Of a DNA stretch of 64,000 bases, positions 1,940 through 55,061 are shown piece after piece. Source of the stretch: a virus. Below the pieces are notes generated by a model that ran no database searches, had not been told where the DNA came from, and saw only the letters and a program-made list of their open reading frames with translations. Numbering within the stretch: position 1 is the stretch's first letter; each line of letters starts with the position of its first letter. The DNA lies in the IMG/VR virus record IMGVR_UViG_3300031227_000032, positions 8,517-72,516 of that record; one strand, given 5' to 3'. The translations under genes and the position numbers were made by a program.

Positions 1940-3118
1940 TCATTCTCCTTTCAGCGTAATAATAGGTTTCAGCTTGTGAACTACGTCCAGTATATCATAC
2001 TGCAATTCGATCACTTTGTCAACGTCCTTATACGCGGCGGGGCATTCATCCAGATACGCCTCATGCGCAGGCGTCAGCGTGTGCGCGATAGAATCAGCGA
2101 ACTCCGATACTGATACTGCGCGCTTAGTTGCGGTGCGTGAGCGTACCCTACCGGCCCCGTGCGAGCAACTGTGATATGAGTCCGCATTCCCTTTGCCGCG
2201 AACGATGTAACTTGACGTGCCCATGCTGCCTGGAATAATACCAAGCTCATTCTCGCGCAATCTGGTAGCGCCCTTGCGATGGATGATAACATTCTGCCCG
2301 AAATGATGCTCCCAAGCTGCGTAGTTGTGGTGAATGTTGATCATGCGTGATTCGTCAAGTTCGATGTTCAGCGCGGCAAGTGCCTCTCGCATCATCAGCT
2401 TACGATTTGCAAGCGCGTAGTTCAACGCCCAGTTCATATCGTGCATGTAATCTTTATGCGCATCAGTGCCGAGCGGTAAAAAGTGCAGCCCTGGCGGTAC
2501 GTTGGAATGCCAGTGCGTATTAAGCTGTTTAGCAATGCCGCTGTACCATAGCGCGATATTGAATCCCGTCTTGCGCGATCCGCTGTGCAGCATAATCCAC
2601 ACTTGGCCGTCCTGATCGTATTGCGCCTCGATAAAGTGGTTGCCCCCGCCGAGCGTGCCGAGTTGCCTGATCTGCATTTCAAGCACGTTAGCGAAGCTAC
2701 GCCCAGGCTTGATATTCGCACGCACTTGCCCGTCAGATTCAGCGCATATGTCCTGTACAGCGTCGGCGCGTGCCTTGCTAATCTCATCATGCTTATTGAA
2801 GCCAGACGGCACACGTTCGCCAACTGCCATCAGCCAGTCAACCCAATATGCATCTGCATAATCACCGCGCATAATGCCAGTCGGATAAGCACACATACCG
2901 CAGCCGATATCCACGCCCACTGCGCACGGCATTACAGCGCCAATCAGCGGGATAACCGAGCCGATGGTAGCGCCGTCGCCAGCGTGTACATCAGGCATAA
3001 CGGCAAGGTGACGGTACAGCATAGGTAGTTTGACAATGTTATCAATCTGCGCTAGTGCTGTAGCTTCAACATCTTCGATACTGTCTAGCCAGATTTTAGC
3101 TCTGTTGTGGTCAATCAT
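1940..3118 (-). CDS. rtcB: RtcB-family RNA ligase
   Basis: MPDVHAG, VGVDIGCGM, LGTLGGGNHFIE, HSGSR, HHNYA, HRKGAT, PGSMG, SCSHGAGR, DECPAAYK. Confidence 0.96.
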   Translation of the reverse strand: MIDHNRAKIWLDSIEDVEATALAQIDNIVKLPMLYRHLAVMPDVHAGDGATIGSVIPLIGAVMPCAVGVDIGCGMCAYPTGIMRGDYADAYWVDWLMAVGERVPSGFNKHDEISKARADAVQDICAESDGQVRANIKPGRSFANVLEMQIRQLGTLGGGNHFIEAQYDQDGQVWIMLHSGSRKTGFNIALWYSGIAKQLNTHWHSNVPPGLHFLPLGTDAHKDYMHDMNWALNYALANRKLMMREALAALNIELDESRMINIHHNYAAWEHHFGQNVIIHRKGATRLRENELGIIPGSMGTSSYIVRGKGNADSYHSCSHGAGRVRSRTATKRAVSVSEFADSIAHTLTPAHEAYLDECPAAYKDVDKVIELQYDILDVVHKLKPIITLKGE

Positions 3119-4158: not shown

Positions 4159-5247
4159 CTACTCTCCTTTGAAACTCACTTTGCTAATTGCTGGAATGAT
4201 ATTCCCCTTGCCGTCCTTTTTCGCCACTACAATACCTGATACATGCGTCGGTAAATGCTCTTTGGCGACTGCCGCTGCGTCTCTGCTGGTATCAGTGCTG
4301 GGGATGTATGCGGCGCTTGCTACAACACCGTTATAATCCAGCTCAATCCAGTAGCGATCATTGCCGTTATCAGTGAACGAGATACAGCGGTATTCCTCAT
4401 GCCTGCCCAGTGGCCACTCATCGCGCCACGTCGGGGCTTTCGTCTCAGCCTTGGCAGGTGTGGCGGGCTTGGGTTTCGGCGCAGTGGCGGGCTTCTGTGC
4501 GGGCTTAGGTGCTGGCTGAATAGGCGGGCAGTCTGCGGCTTCCGGTTTCGCGTCTGGCAACATCTCAGCGCCACCGTCTAGCCAATCGGCGATCAGCTTG
4601 CCATGATCCGGTGTGAGCTTGCCAATGATACCATCGAATAGCCCAGTCCGATCTTTGCTGGTTTCCGCCTCATGGTTCATCGCAATATCGAATACGGTAG
4701 TAAACTCGTATTCCATTCCCTCGCGCTGTACCGGTGCCATGCCAACTTTGATCGGCGCTTGCTTGCCGCGATTGTTTTCCTGCAGGATGTATTCCTGCTT
4801 ACTACGCATTGTAGTAATGACATGCACCTTGGCTTGCAGGATGATCGCCTTAAACTGCTCATGCTGTTTCGTGATTGTAGCCCAGTTCGTATAGCTGTTA
4901 CCGCCGCGTGCGTCTAACGCTTCCTTCTGCTGGAGTAAGCCGCCGTCGCCCGCCCAGCAATGTGTCAGACTGTCGATAATCAGTACGTCATACCCTGCTT
5001 GTTCAGCGGCTTTGATCGCCTGGACATACTTATGTACTGTGAACGGTGCTTCAATGGTCAGCGCGTCATAATCACACAGACCGGAGTATGCTTCACCGCT
5101 ACCATTCTCAGTGTCAATCATCGCAACCTTGCTACCAAGTCCGCGTGCGAGTTGTAGCGCGCTGTAAGTCTTGCCGCTGCCAGATGGCCCCGTGATGGCA
5201 AGTTTGATAAACATACGTCGCCGTGTAGCCTTGTGGAATCCTGTCAT
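4159..5247 (-). CDS. AAA-family ATPase (AAA_24/Sak4-like recombination protein)
   Basis: Walker A GPSGSGKT, IDTE, Walker B LIIDSLTH, EYEFT; Pro/Ala/Lys linker to a C-terminal domain. Confidence 0.85.
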   Translation of the reverse strand: MTGFHKATRRRMFIKLAITGPSGSGKTYSALQLARGLGSKVAMIDTENGSGEAYSGLCDYDALTIEAPFTVHKYVQAIKAAEQAGYDVLIIDSLTHCWAGDGGLLQQKEALDARGGNSYTNWATITKQHEQFKAIILQAKVHVITTMRSKQEYILQENNRGKQAPIKVGMAPVQREGMEYEFTTVFDIAMNHEAETSKDRTGLFDGIIGKLTPDHGKLIADWLDGGAEMLPDAKPEAADCPPIQPAPKPAQKPATAPKPKPATPAKAETKAPTWRDEWPLGRHEEYRCISFTDNGNDRYWIELDYNGVVASAAYIPSTDTSRDAAAVAKEHLPTHVSGIVVAKKDGKGNIIPAISKVSFKGE

Positions 5248-8061: not shown

Positions 8062-8517
8062 GTGATGAACAAGCTAGACGACATGTTGCGTGAGATCATA
8101 AAACAGGCAGAGGCGGCAAGCGGTTGGTATTGTCCAGTCTGTCAACGCGGTGTGCGCCCTGAAGATGTTACATGGGAAGCACATCACACCGAATGCGGCG
8201 CGGGCGTTATCATATCTGAGGAGGGCATTGTATCACGGCTAGCGAGGGCGCTCCGCGCGGCAGTTGGTCAGCGTGATAAGATGATCGTTGAAGTTTTTGC
8301 GCGCATGAATGGCATTGATGAGCTAGGCTTGGCGGCGATAGCGAAAGACCTGGATGACCTGAAAATCACCGGTATACTGGATGGCAATTACAAATGCCCC
8401 GACTGTGACGGTGACGGTGATCTTGGCGCTGCCCCCGACTGGCGGCTGATCGCGTGCGAAACATGCGGAGGTCATGAGGATTCTTTGGGCACAGGCAAAC
8501 TGCCGCCGTCATTTTAG
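8062..8517 (+). CDS. Zn-finger-containing hypothetical protein
   Basis: CPVC...HTEC, CPDCDGDG...CETCGG; GGAGG RBS. Confidence 0.7.
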   Translation: MMNKLDDMLREIIKQAEAASGWYCPVCQRGVRPEDVTWEAHHTECGAGVIISEEGIVSRLARALRAAVGQRDKMIVEVFARMNGIDELGLAAIAKDLDDLKITGILDGNYKCPDCDGDGDLGAAPDWRLIACETCGGHEDSLGTGKLPPSF

Positions 8518-42447: not shown

Positions 42448-43242
42448 TCATCGCGCATCCTGTTTCCATGCCGCGCGTTTCGCGCAGGTATCCAGTGCAT
42501 CAGCTTGGGCAATGTTCGCCGCCCCGATCTTGTCAACCTGCGCCGCCGCCTCGTTTGCTGTATCATGCACTGAGAATGTAAGCCCATATCCGCCGTGCCA
42601 AACAAGTTCATACCAAATGGCGCGGTAACGGGTTTCGTCTAATGCGTTCGTCTCGGCGATGATCTCTGGCAGTATGCGTAGGAAACGCTGATGGTCAGGC
42701 ATTTTAGTATATGGCGTCTCACTGTAATAATCAATATCATTGGCGTGGCTTACCTGATCAATGTGTTCGGCATGTTCGAGCGCCGCCAGCATGCTTTCAA
42801 ATCCTAACCTTTTGATAACCGCCTTTTTCCAGTCCCAGCAACTGCCGCCATCAGTGAAACCTCAACCGCCAGATGATGATGATGTTCCTTTCTGCACACC
42901 TCCCCAATAAATATCATATTGATCGCCGTCTTTGATTATCCATGCTGGCTTATGCAAATCACTCAATGCGCATTTAGCAACATATGTGGTACGTTGTGTA
43001 TTGCATAATGAATATCGGATAGCGTATATTGGGAGCGCACATAATACCAATATACACAGGGCCATAATGACTATACATATCGTTGATCCCACACAGGCGA
43101 CTTCAGACATCTCATGCCCATCTGCCGCAGATTGGGTAATGTATGCGTATTGTGGCCCTGCCACTTCATCACACGAACAAGTTAGCGTAACTATCAGCAA
43201 TATACTGATTAACGCAACTGCAAATTGCAAATGTTTGTTCAT
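42448..43242 (-). CDS. Membrane/lipoprotein moron with in-frame UGA at 42862-42864 (joins ORFs 42862.. and 42448..)
   Basis: Leaderless promoter 43249..43277; frame open across SSGG*GFTDGGSCWDW...ESMLAALEH. Confidence 0.6.
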
Positions 43243-43785: not shown

Positions 43786-45024
43786 TCAACCCCAGACCAC
43801 GCATTCATCACGCATCCTGTTTATCCACGTCAGCAGTTGCCAGTAATCCAACTCCAGCCCATGCGCAATATCCAGCACTGACAGCCTGCCGTCCAGCAAA
43901 TCGAGCACGTCGGCGTATTTCAGATTGAGTTGCCGATCCTGTCGCCAGTCTACCCATAGCCCATGCTTCGATAAACAGATCGGCCCTTGCCCCGTGCGTT
44001 GCGGATACCAGTCGCTATCCATCATATCCAGCAGATCAGCAACGCGGTTAGCGGCGTCCATTATCAAGCTGGGGTGTAGGCGCTCCGCAGTGTCCAGGCT
44101 CGTGTGATAGCCGTAATATGGCACCTCACCTTTCGCCCAGCAACGCGCACGGCTTATACTGACAGCTGGGATGCCGACGTTGTTATACACCTTTTCATCA
44201 TTGCTTACAACGGTGCGGTATGGCTCGGCCTCATCACAGACCAGCACGCCAGCTTTGTCAATCAGCGATTCATCGAACGGCGAGTGCTGTAATACTAGCC
44301 TGTTATCATTGCCCAGCATATCCAGCGCGATAGCGTAGCGGATGTTATGCTGCTCGTTCGCCAAGTATGCGATAGTGCCGATGGTCTCAGGTAGCCACAG
44401 AAATCTCAACCCATACTTACGCGGCGTATCGCGGAGTCGCTTCACAAGCTCGACCATCGCAACGCAACCTGACGCATCATCGTTCGCCTGCATCGGATGG
44501 CAGACGTGCGCTGTCAGCACAATCTCGGCGTCAAGCGTGCCAGGTAGGTACACCTCGCCGATGGCAAGTTCGCCGTCGCTAAACTCGCTGTCGATAAGCA
44601 CGCGGTATTCGTCAGCATCGAACTCGTGTAGGCGGTCATGCTGAATGCAGAATGCCCACGCTGGTTCGTAGTATGAAAACTCAAACGGGATACCCGCTGG
44701 GCAATCCTCACGACTGCGCACATGTTTCATCAGCTCGTTATGGCTGATCGCAGTATCGACCGCCGTGCTGTAGCTCATCACGTGCAGCGGATGGTCGTCA
44801 GTGGATACGATGATACTACCGTCGGGACGTGCGATGTATGCTGTGCGGCACTCCCACTTCGGCGGTATCGTCCAGTCCCATACCTCACTGCCGGTCGGGT
44901 AGCGATGTATTTGCAGCTCCGGTAGGCGTGCGGCAATCGCGCCAAGTGCCGTATCGTAGCCGTCTGAGATGAGGTCACGGCGGTATGCGCTGATTTCGTG
45001 AAGTAGGTTTTGCATAGTTGACAT
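43786..45024 (-). CDS. DUF4910 aminopeptidase-like polysaccharide biosynthesis protein
   Basis: DWTIPPKW, PLHVMSYS, HVCHP.QANDDASG, PETIGTIAYL, YHTSLD, C-terminal winged helix. Confidence 0.85.
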   Translation of the reverse strand: MSTMQNLLHEISAYRRDLISDGYDTALGAIAARLPELQIHRYPTGSEVWDWTIPPKWECRTAYIARPDGSIIVSTDDHPLHVMSYSTAVDTAISHNELMKHVRSREDCPAGIPFEFSYYEPAWAFCIQHDRLHEFDADEYRVLIDSEFSDGELAIGEVYLPGTLDAEIVLTAHVCHPMQANDDASGCVAMVELVKRLRDTPRKYGLRFLWLPETIGTIAYLANEQHNIRYAIALDMLGNDNRLVLQHSPFDESLIDKAGVLVCDEAEPYRTVVSNDEKVYNNVGIPAVSISRARCWAKGEVPYYGYHTSLDTAERLHPSLIMDAANRVADLLDMMDSDWYPQRTGQGPICLSKHGLWVDWRQDRQLNLKYADVLDLLDGRLSVLDIAHGLELDYWQLLTWINRMRDECVVWG

Positions 45025-46893: not shown

Positions 46894-47637
46894 TTATCTA
46901 GGCTGGTCTGCTTGCCATTGTCTGATGCTCGCTTCGTTGCGTGGCTGAGTGTCCGCTATCCATTGCGCGAGTGCTGGGTTAAGCGGGCCTTTGTGACGTT
47001 TCATCCAGGTGTAGGGATCGCGGGCATGCTTGGAGTAATTACACCGCTGGCACGCTGGTATGATGTTATCTTGTGTGTATGGCCCATCATTGTCTTGTGC
47101 AATGAAATGTTCCTGATGAAACTCTTTACCTATTTCTGATTCTGTCCGATTGCAATATGCGCACCGGTGATTAAACAGCATCCATGTATCTTGTCGTTGT
47201 TTTGGTGTCAGTGTGTCCGGCAAGTTGGCTTTGCGCGCTCTGCGACGTTGGTCTTTCATCCGGCATAGTTCTCTGCCCCTGTCAGTTGCGCGGTATACTT
47301 TACCATATTTAGCAGTCCTGTCTTTATGAACCTCGCGCCAGATCTTGATGCGATCATGATTTCGCTCATATCGCGCCTTTCTACATGCGGCAATATTCTC
47401 TTTGTTTGCTTCACAGTATGCCTTGCGAGTTACGGCAATCTTGTCTTTGTAATCTACACGATATGATTTGTCACGTGCGGCTTTGCGGTCTTTGTTGGCT
47501 TCATAGTACGCCTTGTCAGACATCTTCATGCACATTTTACATGCGCTCTGCAATCCGTCCCGTTTCCCTTTATGCTTATAAAACTCGCCAACAGGCTTCA
47601 CTTCCCCACACTTGCTGCATCGCTTAGTCTTACACAT
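46894..47637 (-). CDS. HNH homing endonuclease, leaderless
   Basis: N-terminal CSKC...CKMC; CAYC...EHFIA...NIIPACQRCNYSK; promoter 47644..47672. Confidence 0.88.
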   Translation of the reverse strand: MCKTKRCSKCGEVKPVGEFYKHKGKRDGLQSACKMCMKMSDKAYYEANKDRKAARDKSYRVDYKDKIAVTRKAYCEANKENIAACRKARYERNHDRIKIWREVHKDRTAKYGKVYRATDRGRELCRMKDQRRRARKANLPDTLTPKQRQDTWMLFNHRCAYCNRTESEIGKEFHQEHFIAQDNDGPYTQDNIIPACQRCNYSKHARDPYTWMKRHKGPLNPALAQWIADTQPRNEASIRQWQADQPR

Positions 47638-49587: not shown

Positions 49588-50325
49588 TTACAGTTTATTT
49601 GCAACAGTGGTAGCGGTGTCTATCAGCGAGTGCAACATGCGCGACTCAGCTTCATTAGTAGCGGCTTGAGTGGATTCATCCGGCTCAAGTGCTGGCGCTT
49701 CAATGTCAGCTTCGGTACTGCCGTGCCCGTCGCCGTTGTCTGCAAGGTATTCGTCAAGCTGCGTAGCATTCGGAATGCTCACGCCTAAATCTTGAAGTAG
49801 CTGGATTGTAAACCTAACTTGCGCTAGATTATATGCGGATCGCATTTCATTGACTCCAGCACTCGGCCCAGCCTGCCAGTCTGGAGGTGTAATCGAATAT
49901 TCAAATAGTCTCGCCTCTTTAACATGATTAACTTGCTTATCGTCAGTCTCCATTTGCATAGGTTGGAAGCCGACGGATAGACCAATCTTACGATCAGCCT
50001 CATGTACCAACTTCATATATCCCCACGTCTCTTTAGCGATGGCGTGAGTCTCGATACTCAGCTTCGCACTGACTGCTAGGCCGTGCAGGTCTTCCGTTGC
50101 TGACTGCCCCAATCCAATCGGCGGTCTGCCAGAATATGAATCGTGCATATACAGCACTGATACCTTGCCGCCATTCTCCGATAGCGTCTTTTTATATGCG
50201 CCAGGGTCTACCATTTCGTTGTAGCATTCAATCAGTTCATTGAACACACTGGCGTATCCGTCAAACTCTCCTGTATCGCGCACGTCGGCTACGCGCATTT
50301 TAACGGTGTAATAATGTCTATCCAT
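49588..50325 (-). CDS. HK97-type prohead protease
   Basis: FDGYASVF, GAYKKTL, LYMHD, EDLHGL, GLSVGF, LFEYS. Confidence 0.92.
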   Translation of the reverse strand: MDRHYYTVKMRVADVRDTGEFDGYASVFNELIECYNEMVDPGAYKKTLSENGGKVSVLYMHDSYSGRPPIGLGQSATEDLHGLAVSAKLSIETHAIAKETWGYMKLVHEADRKIGLSVGFQPMQMETDDKQVNHVKEARLFEYSITPPDWQAGPSAGVNEMRSAYNLAQVRFTIQLLQDLGVSIPNATQLDEYLADNGDGHGSTEADIEAPALEPDESTQAATNEAESRMLHSLIDTATTVANKL

Positions 50326-50362
50326 GTTTCCCCCGTGGCGGGTAGCCGCCGTGTTTATCCTC

Positions 50363-51250
50363 TTAAGTTTTCGGGCGTAATTGTTTATCACCTGGTAGCA
50401 TCGGTGACAATCCGCAACGGCATTGAATGTCAAACGCAGCCTTGCCGCTCAGCATCGGCCCTTCGATGAAACCGACCTGATTGAATGTATCAAACAGCCC
50501 GTCCGCATCCGTCACGGCTCCGTCCATGACGATGTGACTGTACATGTCTTTGCCACCGCCACGTACTAAGCTATCGCGTGCCGTTAGCCACTCTGAACGT
50601 ATCACAACATCCAAGTATTCGGCGGACTGTTTGTAACCTTCAAGCTCTGCTTTAATGTCCGCACGTCCGACTTCGGTTCTAGCAATAGCGTTGCTACGCG
50701 GTTGTGTGATCGCATCAGTCTTGCCTGACCATTCGGCGTATTTCTCACTGATTGCTTTCGATGTAACCTTGAAGCCCTGATCTGCAGTATCAGCGATGAT
50801 GACCTCTAACTTTGCCGCGCTGGTTTTGTCAATCAGGTTAGAGCGTATATGTAAATTCTCAGTAAGCCACTTCCGGAAGTCAGGGCGATCAGGTGCGAAC
50901 GCCGGTAGCTTTTCCGCTGCCAGTACTGCAACCTCATCGACTGCCAACTGCCCGAACTCAGCTACTAACTCAGCTTGCAATGGGCCAATGATCGCAGCAT
51001 ACGCGGCATTTTCCACTTCAGGATTCAGCAACGGCTTAGGCTTATCAGCGCGTGTCTGTGCGGTCTTGAGTACCCGCGCCTCCTGACCTACCCAGTATTT
51101 TTCAATGCCCGCCTTGTAGCGTTCCTGCCACGGCTCGCGTATCTTATCCTGATCGGCTAATCGCTCCTCACGATCAGCCAGCGTTGGATACTTACTGCTG
51201 GGGAATGTAGGCTCATCGCCTATATCGTCATCGACCCGATGACTTGGCAC
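50363..51250 (-). CDS. MuF/SPP1 gp7-like minor head domain, in frame with the portal across one UGA
   Basis: RSNAIARTEV, EWLTARD..VR...H..MDG, IQCRC. Confidence 0.88.
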   Translation of the reverse strand: MPSHRVDDDIGDEPTFPSSKYPTLADREERLADQDKIREPWQERYKAGIEKYWVGQEARVLKTAQTRADKPKPLLNPEVENAAYAAIIGPLQAELVAEFGQLAVDEVAVLAAEKLPAFAPDRPDFRKWLTENLHIRSNLIDKTSAAKLEVIIADTADQGFKVTSKAISEKYAEWSGKTDAITQPRSNAIARTEVGRADIKAELEGYKQSAEYLDVVIRSEWLTARDSLVRGGGKDMYSHIVMDGAVTDADGLFDTFNQVGFIEGPMLSGKAAFDIQCRCGLSPMLPGDKQLRPKT

Positions 51251-51256
51251 GCCTCA
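51227..51256 (-). promoter_or_regulatory. UGA plus SECIS-like hairpin at the portal/MuF junction
   Basis: TGA-10 nt-GTCATCG-GGT-CGATGAC. Confidence 0.65.
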
Positions 51257-52606
51257 TCCGCAGGTTTCCAGATACGAACGCATAGCGCGCGCCGCCTCTT
51301 TTGTTTCATTCTCTTCGGTATCGACTCCGATCTCCTCTGGCTGGAGTTGTTTCAATGTATCTGGCAGTCTGATATACGGCTTGTTCAACGGGTTATCCGG
51401 ATCGTCAGGCTCGATCATTTCAAGCCCGCTGGCTTCGCGCTTTTCGTTCGGGGTCATCCAATCGCTGTTAGCAAGGTTGTGCACTCGTTCCGTTACGTTA
51501 TCCTGCAGCGCGTTGATTCCGCTTACAATCGGTAACAGCTTTACATCATCTTCAAGCCCCATCTTAGGTAACACAAACTCTGCAAACTCCTCGCGGAATA
51601 AGCGATGCAATGGCAATACTGTATTCTCATAGAGGAATCGTTCAGCGGACTCGACATTGTTATACGTTGATGATTTGTCATCGCCGACTAACTGTGACGG
51701 CACGCCCAGCGCCGCGCAGATATGCCGCATTGTCACACCAGCGCCGCTAGTCCAGTCCATCTCTTTCGGGCTATGCGCGAGTGCCATATAGTTAGACTTC
51801 TCGCCGTCAATGAAAGCCGTCGCGCCTGCGTTAGATGCACCGCTGAACTTATCGTTGTAATCCTGCTCAATGCGTGCGCGCACTTGCGGAGTCAGTGAAC
51901 TCCAACCCGTAATCTGCAACACACCGCCTGGTACTGCACTATTAGTAAGTAGCTTAGAGTTCCAAGCTAGCTGTAGGTTGCTGGTATCAATGTCCGTCGC
52001 TGCAGCATTCAATGGTGATAATCCAAACATCGGATGCGCAGGATCGGTGAACTTCACGTTATACATTTCGTCAGGCGTCAGATAGCGTTTATTGCCAATG
52101 CCTGTTTCGATAACGTACCGACTGACTGTGCGATTATCTGTGGTTTCAATCGTCACGCGGTCAGGCAATTCGAGATACATTTCAGGTGCGGTCTTGGGTT
52201 GCGTCTTGCCATTAGTCGTGCGCTTGCCAATGCCGATACCTTCGATGTATGTGATACCGGCAAGGTGAAGCTGATTAGACCACAGCGCGATGAACTCGTG
52301 ATAGCCTTGATTCGGATTGAAGCGCTGCACTAAGTTGTACAACGGCTTGACGCGCGGGGCTATATCATCCTGCGTTACAATCTCGCCCTCATACTCGATG
52401 CCGATTGGTACTGCGCAAAGGCCGTTGCCGATTACCCGCAAGCAGGCATATACAATCGGATTGTGCCGATACGCCTCTTTGTAAAACTCATTGAATCGGC
52501 GCGCGCGAAACTCAGCACTGACACCGTTAGTATCCTGAATCGTCAGAACCTTAGCGCGCAACATCGACCGTAGTATGAAGTTTTGGAATCGTTGTTTAAG
52601 GTTCAT
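51254..52606 (-). CDS. Portal protein (HK97 family)
   Basis: NPIVYAC, FNP, GLSPL.AA, ICAALGVP..LVG, STYNN, MTPNEKRE..GL. Confidence 0.94.
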   Translation of the reverse strand: MNLKQRFQNFILRSMLRAKVLTIQDTNGVSAEFRARRFNEFYKEAYRHNPIVYACLRVIGNGLCAVPIGIEYEGEIVTQDDIAPRVKPLYNLVQRFNPNQGYHEFIALWSNQLHLAGITYIEGIGIGKRTTNGKTQPKTAPEMYLELPDRVTIETTDNRTVSRYVIETGIGNKRYLTPDEMYNVKFTDPAHPMFGLSPLNAAATDIDTSNLQLAWNSKLLTNSAVPGGVLQITGWSSLTPQVRARIEQDYNDKFSGASNAGATAFIDGEKSNYMALAHSPKEMDWTSGAGVTMRHICAALGVPSQLVGDDKSSTYNNVESAERFLYENTVLPLHRLFREEFAEFVLPKMGLEDDVKLLPIVSGINALQDNVTERVHNLANSDWMTPNEKREASGLEMIEPDDPDNPLNKPYIRLPDTLKQLQPEEIGVDTEENETKEAARAMRSYLETCG

Positions 52607-52609
52607 AGT

Positions 52610-53137
52610 TTATCCCGTCGCCAATATATGAAATGGCGGCTTGACCGTTCCCTGTAGCGCCGCTGATGCTGATAGCGCAGTCTTAATCCTAGTCTTGGGC
52701 GCTTGCCCAGCAGTGCTGTATAGCGAGCCTAGCGCAACCATATAGCCGCTCCCTACTGATTCGTAGCCGCAGTGCGCACGGTTGTACTGAAAGTCATGAA
52801 AGTTATACAGGTGCTTACCCCACGCGATCAGGAATTGCCCAGCGGACGCTTTGTTATTTTCCAGCGCGGCAAAGTTTAGATCAGTGAATACCGGTCTCAG
52901 TAACTCGGTTATGTTGTATGCGTGGCGGTCAGGATCATTATGTATTTGGTCAGGCCACTTGACACCGTGCTTTAGAATCTGAATCATACGATAATCCGTC
53001 GTGCCGCCCATGACATACGGCCCGCGCTTGAATAGCTTGCGGTCGCCCTGTGAGATGCTAGTCCACTCATTCGCCGCCGCGCTGTCAGCTCCCATGTACA
53101 CGACGCCTTTATGCTTTAGGGCTACAATGCAAGTCAT
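52610..53137 (-). CDS. HslV/proteasome-like Ntn-hydrolase
   Basis: MTCIVAL....VYMGADS, RKLF, SVGSG..VALG; Thr is residue 1 after Met removal. Confidence 0.8.
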   Translation of the reverse strand: MTCIVALKHKGVVYMGADSAAANEWTSISQGDRKLFKRGPYVMGGTTDYRMIQILKHGVKWPDQIHNDPDRHAYNITELLRPVFTDLNFAALENNKASAGQFLIAWGKHLYNFHDFQYNRAHCGYESVGSGYMVALGSLYSTAGQAPKTRIKTALSASAALQGTVKPPFHILATG

Positions 53138-53696: not shown

Positions 53697-55061
53697 TTAC
53701 CCTGTCAGGTAATCCAGCAACTCCATTCCGCCCAGCTCACCGTATACCATGTACCTACAGGCGTCCGGTGCGTGGTCATGCTCTTTCACTGGCTTATCAT
53801 CTGCCAGCTTAGACGCGCTGTAATGATACGCGGGCATCCACTGCACTGCATTCGGACACTTCACCTTATCGAAGCATAGCGCCGGTACGTCCTCCCTGAC
53901 TAGCAGGCTGCGCACTTGCGAGATACCATCGTCAATGCCGTTAATGATCTTGCCCGTGGCGGTCTTAATGTACACCGGAATGCCAAGGCCGATTAACTCC
54001 GCGTTTGCTGCAGCCGACGACGGATCACAGAACGCACCCTTAAACTGATTCTCGTTCAGATGGTCAATGCCTAACGCCGTGAGCTTGTTAATGATCTGCT
54101 CGCCGATCTGCGCTGGTATCTGACCGCTGACGTATATCTCATCGAAGACATTGATCTGCTCAGCGCCTACTTGCTGCCCGAATAGTACACACGTTGGGTT
54201 ATCGAAACCCCAGTCAATGCCCAGGAACACCCGCGAGTCAGGCGTATACTTTACCTCTGCAACGTGGCGCTCTAAGCTGAACTGCGGATAGACTGAACCT
54301 GTCCGCGCTTCAAACTCTGCTAGAAACTCCTGACTGAAGCGTGATAGCTCACCGCGCCGGATGTACATATCGCGGATTTTGTCAATCGTCGCCGTATCAT
54401 TAAACGGGTTATCATAGCTAGTCCACTTCGCTGTAGCATACTCTGAATCGACTAACGCTTGGTCTGTCCAGTCAAGCCAGGTGTCCCGTGCGTGGTTATA
54501 TCCGTTCGGTGTGGTAGGTATACCCAGCACGCCCTTACAGTCAAGCAGCGGCGGCATGAGATGTTCAGCGAGCACGTCCTTACCAAAGGCGTACTCATCG
54601 GCAAGTGTCATTACAAGCCCAGGCCCGCGCAGTGAGGTAGGGTCTTTTGTAGTCTTACCCTCAATCCTAGCACGCCACGGCATTTCGATATACCGCTCAC
54701 GTGTAGACTTATGCAACGGCGTTGCGCCCAATACCTTTTGATCGACTACGAACTTCCAGACCTGCCCGAAGATGTTATCTGTAATGTCAGATTCAGGTGC
54801 AGCTACAAGTATCAAACGTTTCGGCAGTAGGCCAATCGGTTTGAATGCCATCTCAGTTGTACCCTCGGTAGACCAGCCTAGCGACTTACCGGAACGCCGA
54901 CCTGCAACGTTCATTATGTACTTAGCGCCCGCGTCTATCGGGTTATGTATGCCGCGCAGTTGCCCCGCGTGCGGTACGTAGTCTATGGCATTCCATATAC
55001 GTTGCCTGTGATATTTGCGTTCAAGCGTGCGGAATTGCTGTGGTGTAATGAGTGTAGACAA
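53697..55061 (-). CDS. terL: Terminase large subunit
   Basis: AGRRSGKS, LRG...LADEYA, TTPNG.N, GIDWG, DHAPDACRY. Confidence 0.95.
   Translation of the reverse strand: MSTLITPQQFRTLERKYHRQRIWNAIDYVPHAGQLRGIHNPIDAGAKYIMNVAGRRSGKSLGWSTEGTTEMAFKPIGLLPKRLILVAAPESDITDNIFGQVWKFVVDQKVLGATPLHKSTRERYIEMPWRARIEGKTTKDPTSLRGPGLVMTLADEYAFGKDVLAEHLMPPLLDCKGVLGIPTTPNGYNHARDTWLDWTDQALVDSEYATAKWTSYDNPFNDTATIDKIRDMYIRRGELSRFSQEFLAEFEARTGSVYPQFSLERHVAEVKYTPDSRVFLGIDWGFDNPTCVLFGQQVGAEQINVFDEIYVSGQIPAQIGEQIINKLTALGIDHLNENQFKGAFCDPSSAAANAELIGLGIPVYIKTATGKIINGIDDGISQVRSLLVREDVPALCFDKVKCPNAVQWMPAYHYSASKLADDKPVKEHDHAPDACRYMVYGELGGMELLDYLTG

Follow-up and report, generated by a model that had tools for sequence, protein, structure and literature searches.

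A derived split of a portal–MuF fusion gene at an in-frame UGA, with a candidate restart codon three bases downstream

Introduction

Portal and MuF proteins are found in nature both fused and separate. In bacteriophage SPP1, the MuF-family protein gp7 enters the procapsid through binding to the portal and is present in few copies (PMC6316719), in agreement with the low-copy portal binding on which the original prediction for the present locus drew. Fusions of the two proteins, which that prediction also took to exist, are in print for Microbacterium phages, where they are carried by clusters EB and EA3/EA5/EA8 (PMC7302621).

Work in Escherichia coli is relevant to a reading frame that lies close behind a stop codon. 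There, a distance of +2 nt cut reinitiation by only 5–70 % (PMC10666635). Structure after the stop codon lowers re-initiation, without a link to readthrough in the system described, and is depleted in gene pairs closer than 25 nt (PMC7518266). According to a review, the minimal SECIS of E. coli is 17 nt long, lies 11 nt from the UGA, carries G23 and U24 in its loop, and has a bulged U17; mutation of U17 or G23 abolishes its function (PMC8659212). Known selenoproteins are all said to have cysteine homologues with conserved flanks, and predictions of SECIS-like hairpins are reported to include many false positives (PMC12013277).

The locus described here lies in a stretch of 64,000 nt (the window; positions 8,517 to 72,516 of IMG/VR virus record IMGVR_UViG_3300031227_000032). 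The phage is from a salt lake. The features of the locus are collected in Table 1.

Table 1. Features of the portal–MuF junction, in positions of the window
Feature	Position	Strand	Basis or remark
Portal protein ORF, 450 aa, ending in TGA	51254..52606	minus	PF04860 and PHROG profiles
In-frame TGA between the portal and MuF halves	51254..51256	minus	
GTG, sole candidate start of the MuF-like ORF	51248..51250	minus	3 nt past the stop
MuF-like minor head protein ORF, 295 aa	50363..51250	minus	phrog_2468, phrog_2662
17-nt hairpin, GTCATCG-GGT-CGATGAC	51227..51243	minus	10 nt after the TGA, 4 nt after the GTG
Variable linker with TGA, GTG, and hairpin	51185..51373	minus	Read-through residues 412–474

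Domain content and ancestry

The upstream ORF is a portal gene by its profile matches. PF04860 (phage portal) aligns with residues 50–392 (E=1.6e-49; 169.3 bits against a cut-off of 39.1), covering profile positions 1–319 of 321, and the PHROG families matched are phrog_12 (E=7e-52) and phrog_2662 (E=1.4e-47). The gene neighbourhood is composed of terminase, portal-MuF, S78 protease, and HK97-type capsid genes. For the 295-aa ORF, the PHROG matches are phrog_2468, 'head morphogenesis' (E=2e-14), and again phrog_2662 (E=3e-12). Its match to PF04233 (Phage Mu F / SPP1 gp7) is weak (E=9e-4), the 20.4 bits lying below the cut-off of 29.6, and tblastn finds proteins that are annotated as minor head or capsid proteins in phages of Lactococcus, Streptococcus, and Enterococcus, with E from 3e-5 to 1e-3.

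Both ORFs map to phrog_2662, a 717-position 'portal' profile, with positions 47–410 corresponding to the portal ORF and 467–708 to the second ORF. This collinearity and the lengths of the homologues bear out the earlier suggestion that these are the two halves of a portal–MuF fusion. Among the 36 non-self matches of the 295-aa ORF at E<=1e-10, 28 are proteins of 661–746 aa that align by their C-terminal part; its nearest homologues are tethered, not standalone, forms. The read-through translation (P0151) is collinear over its full length with 11 fusions, to which it is 30–44 % identical (alignment A1), and every invariant column of A1 is kept in the 295-aa ORF. The single uninterrupted frame that is typical of phrog_2662 fusions is absent here, being broken by the TGA.

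In a tree of 62 portal rows, obtained by a quick IQ-TREE search, the 11 fused rows group with the window and locus L011 in one clade (SH-aLRT 97), which is itself a polytomy. Since this clade comprises 11 fused and two split forms, the split is derived. In L011 the split results from a frame change within the acidic linker, a clade of 26 rows is split in every row, and the standalone homologue P0024 begins 4 residues ahead of its S-L-Y-P-T. To judge from these cases, fission at this linker is a recurrent event.

Close relatives are lacking among the data searched. When the region was compared by blastn with 50,697 phage records there was no match, and no related loci were found by either single protein among viral contigs; word-index protein searches returned, beyond the window's own proteins, only two fusions, one 45 % and the other 31 % identical. 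Alignment-based scans yielded 162 loci (viral, 80; metagenome, 80; genome, 2), of which the best was approximately 40 % identical. Overall, the nearest relatives found are 40–45 % identical and none is closer than about 45 %. None of the 162 fetched loci has the same combination of TGA, GTG, and hairpin. The two genome loci are contigs of Anaerolineae MAGs, too thin a basis for naming a host.

The stop codon, the start codon, and the hairpin

The 3′ end of the portal ORF reads TAT CTG GAA ACC TGC GGA TGA (YLETCG and stop) on the minus strand, and directly 3′ of the TGA, in the same frame, is GGC GTG CCA AGT CAT CGG GTC GAT GAC GAT (GVPSHRVDDD). Translation of the minus strand reproduces the predicted passage from the portal through the TGA and GGC-GTG into the MuF-like ORF, giving a read-through product of 747 residues. 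The frame is open for 296 codons past the UGA, and the conserved motif P-T-F-P-S-S-K-Y-P-T-L begins 15 residues past the GTG. The stop falls in mid-linker and both halves are intact. In an AlphaFold2 model of the read-through product, which is modest overall (mean pLDDT 64.8, pTM 0.43) and was used for its confidence profile only, predicted pLDDT is below 50 across residues 412–474. In A1 the linker varies in length and its columns are gapped, with linkers of 27–81 aa in the homologues.

A sequencing or assembly error in a gene that is truly fused would agree with the closest relatives, all but one of which are fused. However, the TGA and hairpin (51227–51256) show 0 differences among the contigs of four runs (X1–X4) from four studies, dated 2017–2019 in the run table. 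All four are represented by contigs and one is possibly the source of the record, but those of X2, X3, and X4 were separately assembled from other samples. Finding the same TGA in contigs of four sequencing runs excludes an assembly error, and the probability that the gene is fused and misread is negligible. An RNA run was sought among the 18 runs carrying part or all of the region and none was listed.

TGA is the terminator of 17 of the 56 listed minus-strand ORFs and is therefore an ordinary stop in this phage. Genome-wide reassignment of TGA was rejected on the same count. Of the 55 pairs of consecutive minus-strand ORFs, 4 have a stop-NNN-start junction, one of these being the pair immediately upstream, so the in-frame relation of the portal and MuF ORFs is unremarkable in itself. 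Spacings of -4, -1, or 0 account for 13 further pairs.

The GTG had been described as having a poorly spaced Shine–Dalgarno (SD) sequence, and this is true in part: a GAGG lies only 1 nt before the GTG, whereas a GGA is placed 6 nt before it. The best anti-SD duplex at the GTG has an energy of -5.0 kcal/mol, which ranks 34th among the 56 ORF starts, and the TIR folds at -18.3 kcal/mol, making it the 3rd most structured of the 56 (mean -9.9, sd 4.8). Due to the GTG start codon, the weak or badly spaced SD, and the strong folding, independent initiation here is expected to be poor, and the hairpin and surrounding structure would therefore couple MuF synthesis to that of the portal.

The perfect 7-bp stem (GTCATCG/CGATGAC) with its GGT loop is present as predicted, starting at +11, and folds alone at -7.2 kcal/mol. 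Perfect hairpins of at least 7 bp with loops of 3–8 nt are rare here, at 12 per strand in the 64 kb (two of these being one nested hairpin), and the same class numbers 26.8 ± 5.6 in 30 shuffles, more than the observed 12. The chance of such a hairpin starting in a given 16-nt span is P ~0.003, or ~0.17 over 56 stops. When the peptide GVPSHRVDDDI is held fixed and codons are redrawn by phage usage, 413 of 5000 recodings fold equally well. The 40 nt past this stop are the 4th most structured of the 56, and folding of the 81 nt that surround the junction shows no significant stability (z=-1.70; 9 of 200 shuffles as stable).

Proposed selenocysteine at the UGA

The original prediction was that the UGA is partly read as selenocysteine, on the basis of a CxU motif. 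Under this explanation the hairpin would be a SECIS bound by host SelB and the C-G-U motif would belong to a portal–MuF selenoprotein. The sequence before and after the UGA is indeed homologous to single proteins, and a cysteine lies two residues ahead of it. However, an in-frame UGA between two homologous coding stretches is equally what a split fusion would give.

A cysteine at the UGA column was not found. The check covered 35 fetched fused homologues of 640–760 aa (P0003–P0046), out of 236 matches; neither a cysteine nor another UGA occupies the aligned column in any of these (0/35), and the flanks are gapped. The site lies within the variable, low-confidence linker and not in an active site. 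In 34 of the 35 the linker is free of cysteine; the exception, P0037, has C-S-C a few columns from the UGA column and is the one homologue that speaks for selenocysteine. This C-S-C and the SD-like GAGG only 1 nt from the GTG are observations that count against fission.

The hairpin resembles the minimal E. coli element of the fdhF type in being 17 nt long, in lying 10 nt, as against 11 nt, from the UGA, and in having G and U in its G-G-U loop (PMC8659212). This SECIS-like geometry (17 nt, 10-nt spacer, G-U loop) is not predicted by the fission model. Unlike the fdhF-type SECIS, the hairpin has a 3-nt loop closed by G-C and no lower stem, and its seven base pairs are perfect, leaving out the bulged U that is essential, as U17, in the E. 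coli type (PMC8659212). Nor does the window share the cysteine homologues and Rfam match of that type: searching Rfam at E<=10 gave no SECIS family, the five sub-threshold matches (snoRNA-like and similar) being taken as chance. The whole 72.5-kb record has no tRNA gene, tRNA-Sec included, and selenocysteine insertion would depend on selA, selB, selC, and selD in the host. SECIS-like predictions are described as prone to false positives (PMC12013277), and a natural phage selenoprotein was absent among the literature matches listed (best 12 of 48). With no aligned cysteine, SECIS match, bulged U, or tRNA gene, the predicted selenocysteine readthrough is not upheld, and selenocysteine at this UGA is considered very improbable.

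Restart, readthrough, or loss of function

The evidence points to ordinary translational coupling. Most likely, with moderate confidence, the gene underwent fission and MuF is made mainly by termination–reinitiation at the GTG, throttled by structure, with background leakage at the UGA giving traces of fusion. The linker TGA would have divided the chain of approximately 700 aa seen in the nearest relatives between a portal of 450 aa and a MuF-like protein of 295 aa. After termination at the portal UGA, the same ribosomes would restart at the GTG three bases downstream, and the hairpin and surrounding structure would tie MuF synthesis to that of the portal and probably keep MuF below the portal level. 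Free MuF may then join the portal non-covalently, by analogy with SPP1 gp7 and gp6, and small amounts of the 747-aa fusion may arise in addition from background misreading of the UGA. Restart at the GTG, which had previously been set aside, is the simpler route. It is plausible at a distance of 3 nt because of the E. coli result for +2 nt (PMC10666635). Since post-stop structure lowers restart and is depleted in close pairs in the data of PMC7518266, restart here could be very inefficient.

Readthrough of the UGA by a near-cognate tRNA (for example tRNA-Trp), programmed or otherwise used, with the hairpin as stimulator and GTG restart minor or absent, is unlikely. A set minority of portal chains would be extended, so that each 12-mer would have roughly one tethered MuF or fewer. 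The 296 open codons past the UGA form an intact domain that is always tethered in relatives, the GTG site is poor for independent initiation, and a perfect hairpin this near a stop is rare in the genome. UGA is also the leakiest stop, with ~2 % readthrough at 37 °C and ~4 % at 25 °C in E. coli K-12 with no signal (PMC10570021). However, in a synthetic operon in E. coli it was re-initiation that depended on the structure after the stop, and hardly any readthrough product was detected (PMC7518266). The GTG is exactly where a restart codon would be needed, and the in-frame state is the product of any point nonsense change in a fused gene. Likewise, given the dimensions of the ribosome footprint, the 10-nt spacer would leave the hairpin outside the entry channel when the UGA is in the A site. 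Fold strength equal to that of the hairpin is reached by 413 of 5000 synonymous recodings, and the device is not repeated in any of the 162 fetched loci.

The stronger proposal, that the UGA serves to set the MuF dose, being decoded at a fixed low frequency (by a near-cognate tRNA, less likely as selenocysteine), stimulated by the hairpin at +11 and tethering MuF to a minority of portal subunits, is improbable. A minority of portal subunits may carry MuF through leakage at the UGA, and nothing shows that this is programmed.

It is similarly doubtful that the TGA is a recent disabling nonsense mutation that leaves little useful MuF, with the GTG and hairpin accidental and the phage managing without MuF, like SPP1 lacking gp7. 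SPP1 gp7 is dispensable, about 25 % of virions being infectious without it (PMC6316719). The start signals at the GTG are weak and, with the peptide fixed, the hairpin is only marginally unusual. Against this, the frame of 295 codons is fully open and has lost none of the invariant columns of the family, the sequence is identical in the four runs of four studies over 2017–2019, and a start codon so close to the stop, no more than one codon away, would not be expected by chance (an estimated 5 % or so per codon).

Implications

New here are the finding that fusions of 661–746 aa make up almost all of the nearest homologues of the 295-aa ORF, the collinearity of the read-through translation with them at 30–44 % identity, and the derivation of the split from within a fused clade. 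The locus represents a fission inside an otherwise fused clade, in which both halves are intact and in frame, and would be a clean natural case of a phage passing from a state with 12 MuF copies tethered to each portal to one in which MuF is a freely dosed partner. The locus is suited to comparing restart with UGA leakage in a structural gene. If set, used readthrough were true, this would be one of the rare cases in tailed phages, and if the UGA were a dosing device, it would be a stop-codon counterpart, in the head of a tailed dsDNA phage, of stoichiometry set by frameshifting.

Comparison with known systems

The junction is like the termination–reinitiation pairs and the 'ribosome termination structure' described for E. 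coli in its 3-nt gap, in its stable post-stop structure, and in that portal and MuF are partners of one complex (PMC10666635, PMC7518266). An overlap of 4 or 1 nt is the commonest arrangement in coupled pairs, whereas this pair is spaced by 3 nt, and because post-stop structures are depleted in the close pairs of PMC7518266, it is atypical.

As in SPP1 (gp6/gp7), a gene of the MuF family comes after the portal gene. Unlike SPP1 gp7, the MuF half is nearest to tethered forms, its PF04233 match is below the cut-off, and its binding to the portal is putative. In the RNA phage Q-beta, UGA readthrough from coat to A1 has been shown experimentally. Here, too, a longer minor structural protein could come from leakage at a UGA after a major structural gene; unlike Q-beta, the window has a restart codon, and readthrough is possible rather than established.

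The fused portal–MuF proteins of phrog_2662 and of the Microbacterium clusters have the same two domains, in the same order and in the same neighbourhood, as the window. Compared with these, the frame of the window is cut by the linker TGA, and a GTG follows 3 nt on.

Two open reading frames as halves of one protein

The late genes are on the minus strand, in the order terminase, 175-aa ORF, portal, 295-aa ORF, protease, and capsid; the viral record is linear and 72.5 kb long, 64 kb of which are in the window. By Pfam, the 295-aa ORF has a weak likeness to MuF (PF04233, 20.4 bits, below the cut-off of 29.6), and in PHROGs, more clearly, it matches phrog_2468 'head morphogenesis' (E=2e-14). Within phrog_2662 (717 positions, labelled portal), the portal corresponds to positions 47-410 and the 295-aa ORF to 467-708.

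Searched exhaustively with HMMER against 1.84 billion representatives, the second ORF matched 236 proteins at E<=1e-3. At E<=1e-10 there are 36 non-self matches, 28 of 661-746 aa with their C-terminal ~270 residues aligned to the ORF, and eight of 130-409 aa that are fragments or standalone forms. The frame translated across the portal TGA, 747 residues, aligns end to end with 11 of the long proteins at 30-44 % identity, therefore the two ORFs are halves of a protein that relatives make whole. The portal-MuF fusion link of the original prediction is right, and much strengthened by this homology. Portal-MuF fusions have been reported for Microbacterium phages (PMC7302621).

Features of the window discussed in the text
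Feature	Position	Strand	Match or start
Large terminase	53697-55061	-	
175-aa ORF	52610-53137	-	phrog_1040 'peptidase HslV family', E=2e-14; no Pfam match
Portal	51254-52606	-	PF04860, E=1.6e-49
295-aa ORF, MuF-like	50363-51250	-	GTG start
S78 prohead protease	49588-50433 (listed)	-	TTG start (listed)
HK97-type capsid protein	after S78 prohead protease	-	
ORF downstream of head genes	43786-45024	-	DUF4910, DUF2172, Peptidase_M28
RtcB RNA ligase, full length	1940-3118	-	PF01139, E=1.4e-102

As listed, the protease ORF shares 71 nt with the MuF ORF. Its more likely start is an in-frame ATG at 50325, with GGGGGAAAC ahead of it, which would leave ~37 nt between the MuF stop and the protease. The product of the ORF downstream of the head genes is aminopeptidase-like, which is unusual for a phage late region.

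The junction and its stop codon

The portal ends ...YLETCG-TGA and continues in frame as GGC GTG CCA AGT CAT CGG GTC GAT GAC GAT, in which the GTG is the start of the 295-aa ORF. A perfect 7 bp hairpin with a GGU loop (51243-51227) begins at the 11th base past the stop, the fifth past the GTG. The sequence had been described in these terms (C-G-UGA join, 747 aa, 7-bp hairpin at +11), accurately.

The TGA is within the most variable part of the alignment, in a CG*GVPSHRV stretch absent from most homologues; the linkers of fused homologues are 27-81 aa and often acidic. In an AlphaFold2 model based on that alignment (mean pLDDT 64.8), the portal core is predicted with good confidence and the MuF half with moderate confidence, and pLDDT is below 50 at residues 412-474, the stop being at 451.

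The region is present in 18 salt-lake metagenome runs. Four of these, from four studies that the run table dates to 2017-2019, were compared as contigs; X1 is a possible source of the window and X2, X3, and X4 are separate assemblies. Each of these three has a contig spanning 51227-51256 with no differences, which excludes assembly error as the cause of the stop; contigs do not reveal rare variants. The split form persists in nature.

The split as the probably derived state

From 162 related loci, 87 with both halves, in which the portal match was 220 aa or longer, were kept, the other 75 being mostly truncated by contig ends or having one half only. The portals of the 87 reduce to 61 distinct sequences, of which 34 are fused and 27 split. 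In a quick maximum-likelihood tree of the portals, 26 split rows form one distant clade, with the genes in other frames or ~100-230 nt apart. The window's clade (SH-aLRT 97), a polytomy in this quick search, has 13 rows: 11 fused, the window, and a second split locus, L011. The whole tree requires three changes between fused and split.

L011 is split differently, by a shift to the +1 frame within its acidic linker, and there are ATG codons where the two frames overlap. At ~4300-4420, on the same contig as another related locus (L089), its portal ends ...DDDEGDGD-TGA and the MuF half goes on in the +1 frame. Possible causes are a genuine start codon in the overlap, a frameshift site, and an indel following a GGGG run. 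As the window's clade is mostly fused and L011 is split otherwise, the window's split is most simply read as a derived fission, and this linker has been the site of fission more than once. The fused gene is a known one, and its fission in the window looks recent.

Proposed selenocysteine at the UGA

The original prediction had the UGA as a site of partial selenocysteine readthrough, for which the hairpin would act as SECIS; this mechanism is unsupported here and highly improbable. The UGA has homologous coding sequence on either side and a Cys two residues before it, and the hairpin has the 17-nt length of the minimal E. coli SECIS, much the same place (10 versus 11 nt from the UGA), and a loop containing G-U; however, because its stem is perfect, it has no bulged U, mutation of which is reported to abolish function in E. 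coli (PMC8659212). The UGA is also in a disordered linker rather than a catalytic centre. Every known selenoprotein is reported to have Cys homologues with conserved flanks (PMC12013277), yet none of the 35 fused homologues examined had Cys at the UGA-aligned column and 34 had no linker Cys at all. The exception, P0037, carries a linker C-S-C-H motif within a few alignment columns of the window's C-G-TGA, a point in favour of selenocysteine. Of the five matches in Rfam at E<=10, none is to a SECIS family. The 72.5-kb record has no tRNA gene, and TGA serves the phage as a normal stop codon, terminating 17 of 56 ORFs. Despite the lack of tRNA genes the phage carries RtcB, which may mend host tRNA cleaved by a defence nuclease.

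Significance of the hairpin

Perfect hairpins (>=7 bp, loop 3-8 nt) number 12 per strand in the window, two of these being parts of one nested hairpin; shuffled sequence has 26.8 +/- 5.6, about twice as many. Besides that at the portal stop, only one comes within 10 nt of a stop in the ORF list, and it looks like a terminator. The 40 nt past the portal stop are the fourth most structured of 56. The fold of the 81-nt junction is not significant (z=-1.70), and with the peptide fixed 413 of 5000 synonymous recodings fold equally well; the 3' arm is plain Asp codons, to which the 5' arm happens to be complementary. Evidence for the hairpin as a selected element is weak. It is taken as real and as probably affecting translation.

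Translation of the MuF half

Stop-NNN-start junctions occur in four of 55 consecutive minus-strand ORF pairs, including the pair directly upstream (TAA-ACT-ATG, 175-aa ORF into portal), and 13 further pairs have spacings of -4, -1, or 0. Tight coupling is a general habit of this phage genome. A promoter-like motif (TTGACA, ~17 nt, then TGTGGTAT(A/G)AT) recurs between several minus-strand genes: it follows the stops at 42448, 43275, 43786, and 57779 and precedes the start at 47637.

The GTG region (-30..+33) folds at -18.3 kcal/mol, third of 56 starts (mean -9.9), and for strength of the best anti-SD duplex it is 34th of 56, most genes here having AGGAG-type sites at 6-9 nt. It is poorly suited to entry of free 30S subunits. 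In E. coli, reinitiation at a +2-nt distance is reported to lose 5-70 % and to collapse by about 40 nt (PMC10666635), and in a synthetic operon stable post-stop structure is reported to cut re-initiation, with no link to readthrough (PMC7518266). Taken together, the tight junctions, poor GTG site, and post-stop structure point to a dependence of MuF translation on ribosomes that come from the portal gene. Fission with coupled restart at the GTG is the somewhat favoured explanation.

Readthrough of the UGA put to use as a dosing device, rather than as noise, is unlikely. Leak in E. coli K-12 reporters is given as about 2 % at 37 C, against about 4 % at 25 C (PMC10570021); by our arithmetic, 2-4 % would give 0.2-0.5 fused chains per average portal ring. 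Any leak gives a plausible fusion, since the downstream frame is open and encodes the domain that relatives tether to each subunit, and such a fusion is probably assembly-competent. That the MuF half is silent or dispensable is quite unlikely; both domains are intact despite the cut, and every invariant family column is kept.

The locus is a good experimental handle on restart versus leak. With coupled restart, local structure would trim the rate at the GTG, and the yield of MuF would thus be below that of the portal. Such a low dose fits SPP1, in which gp7 is reported to bind the portal and to enter the procapsid in few copies (PMC6316719).
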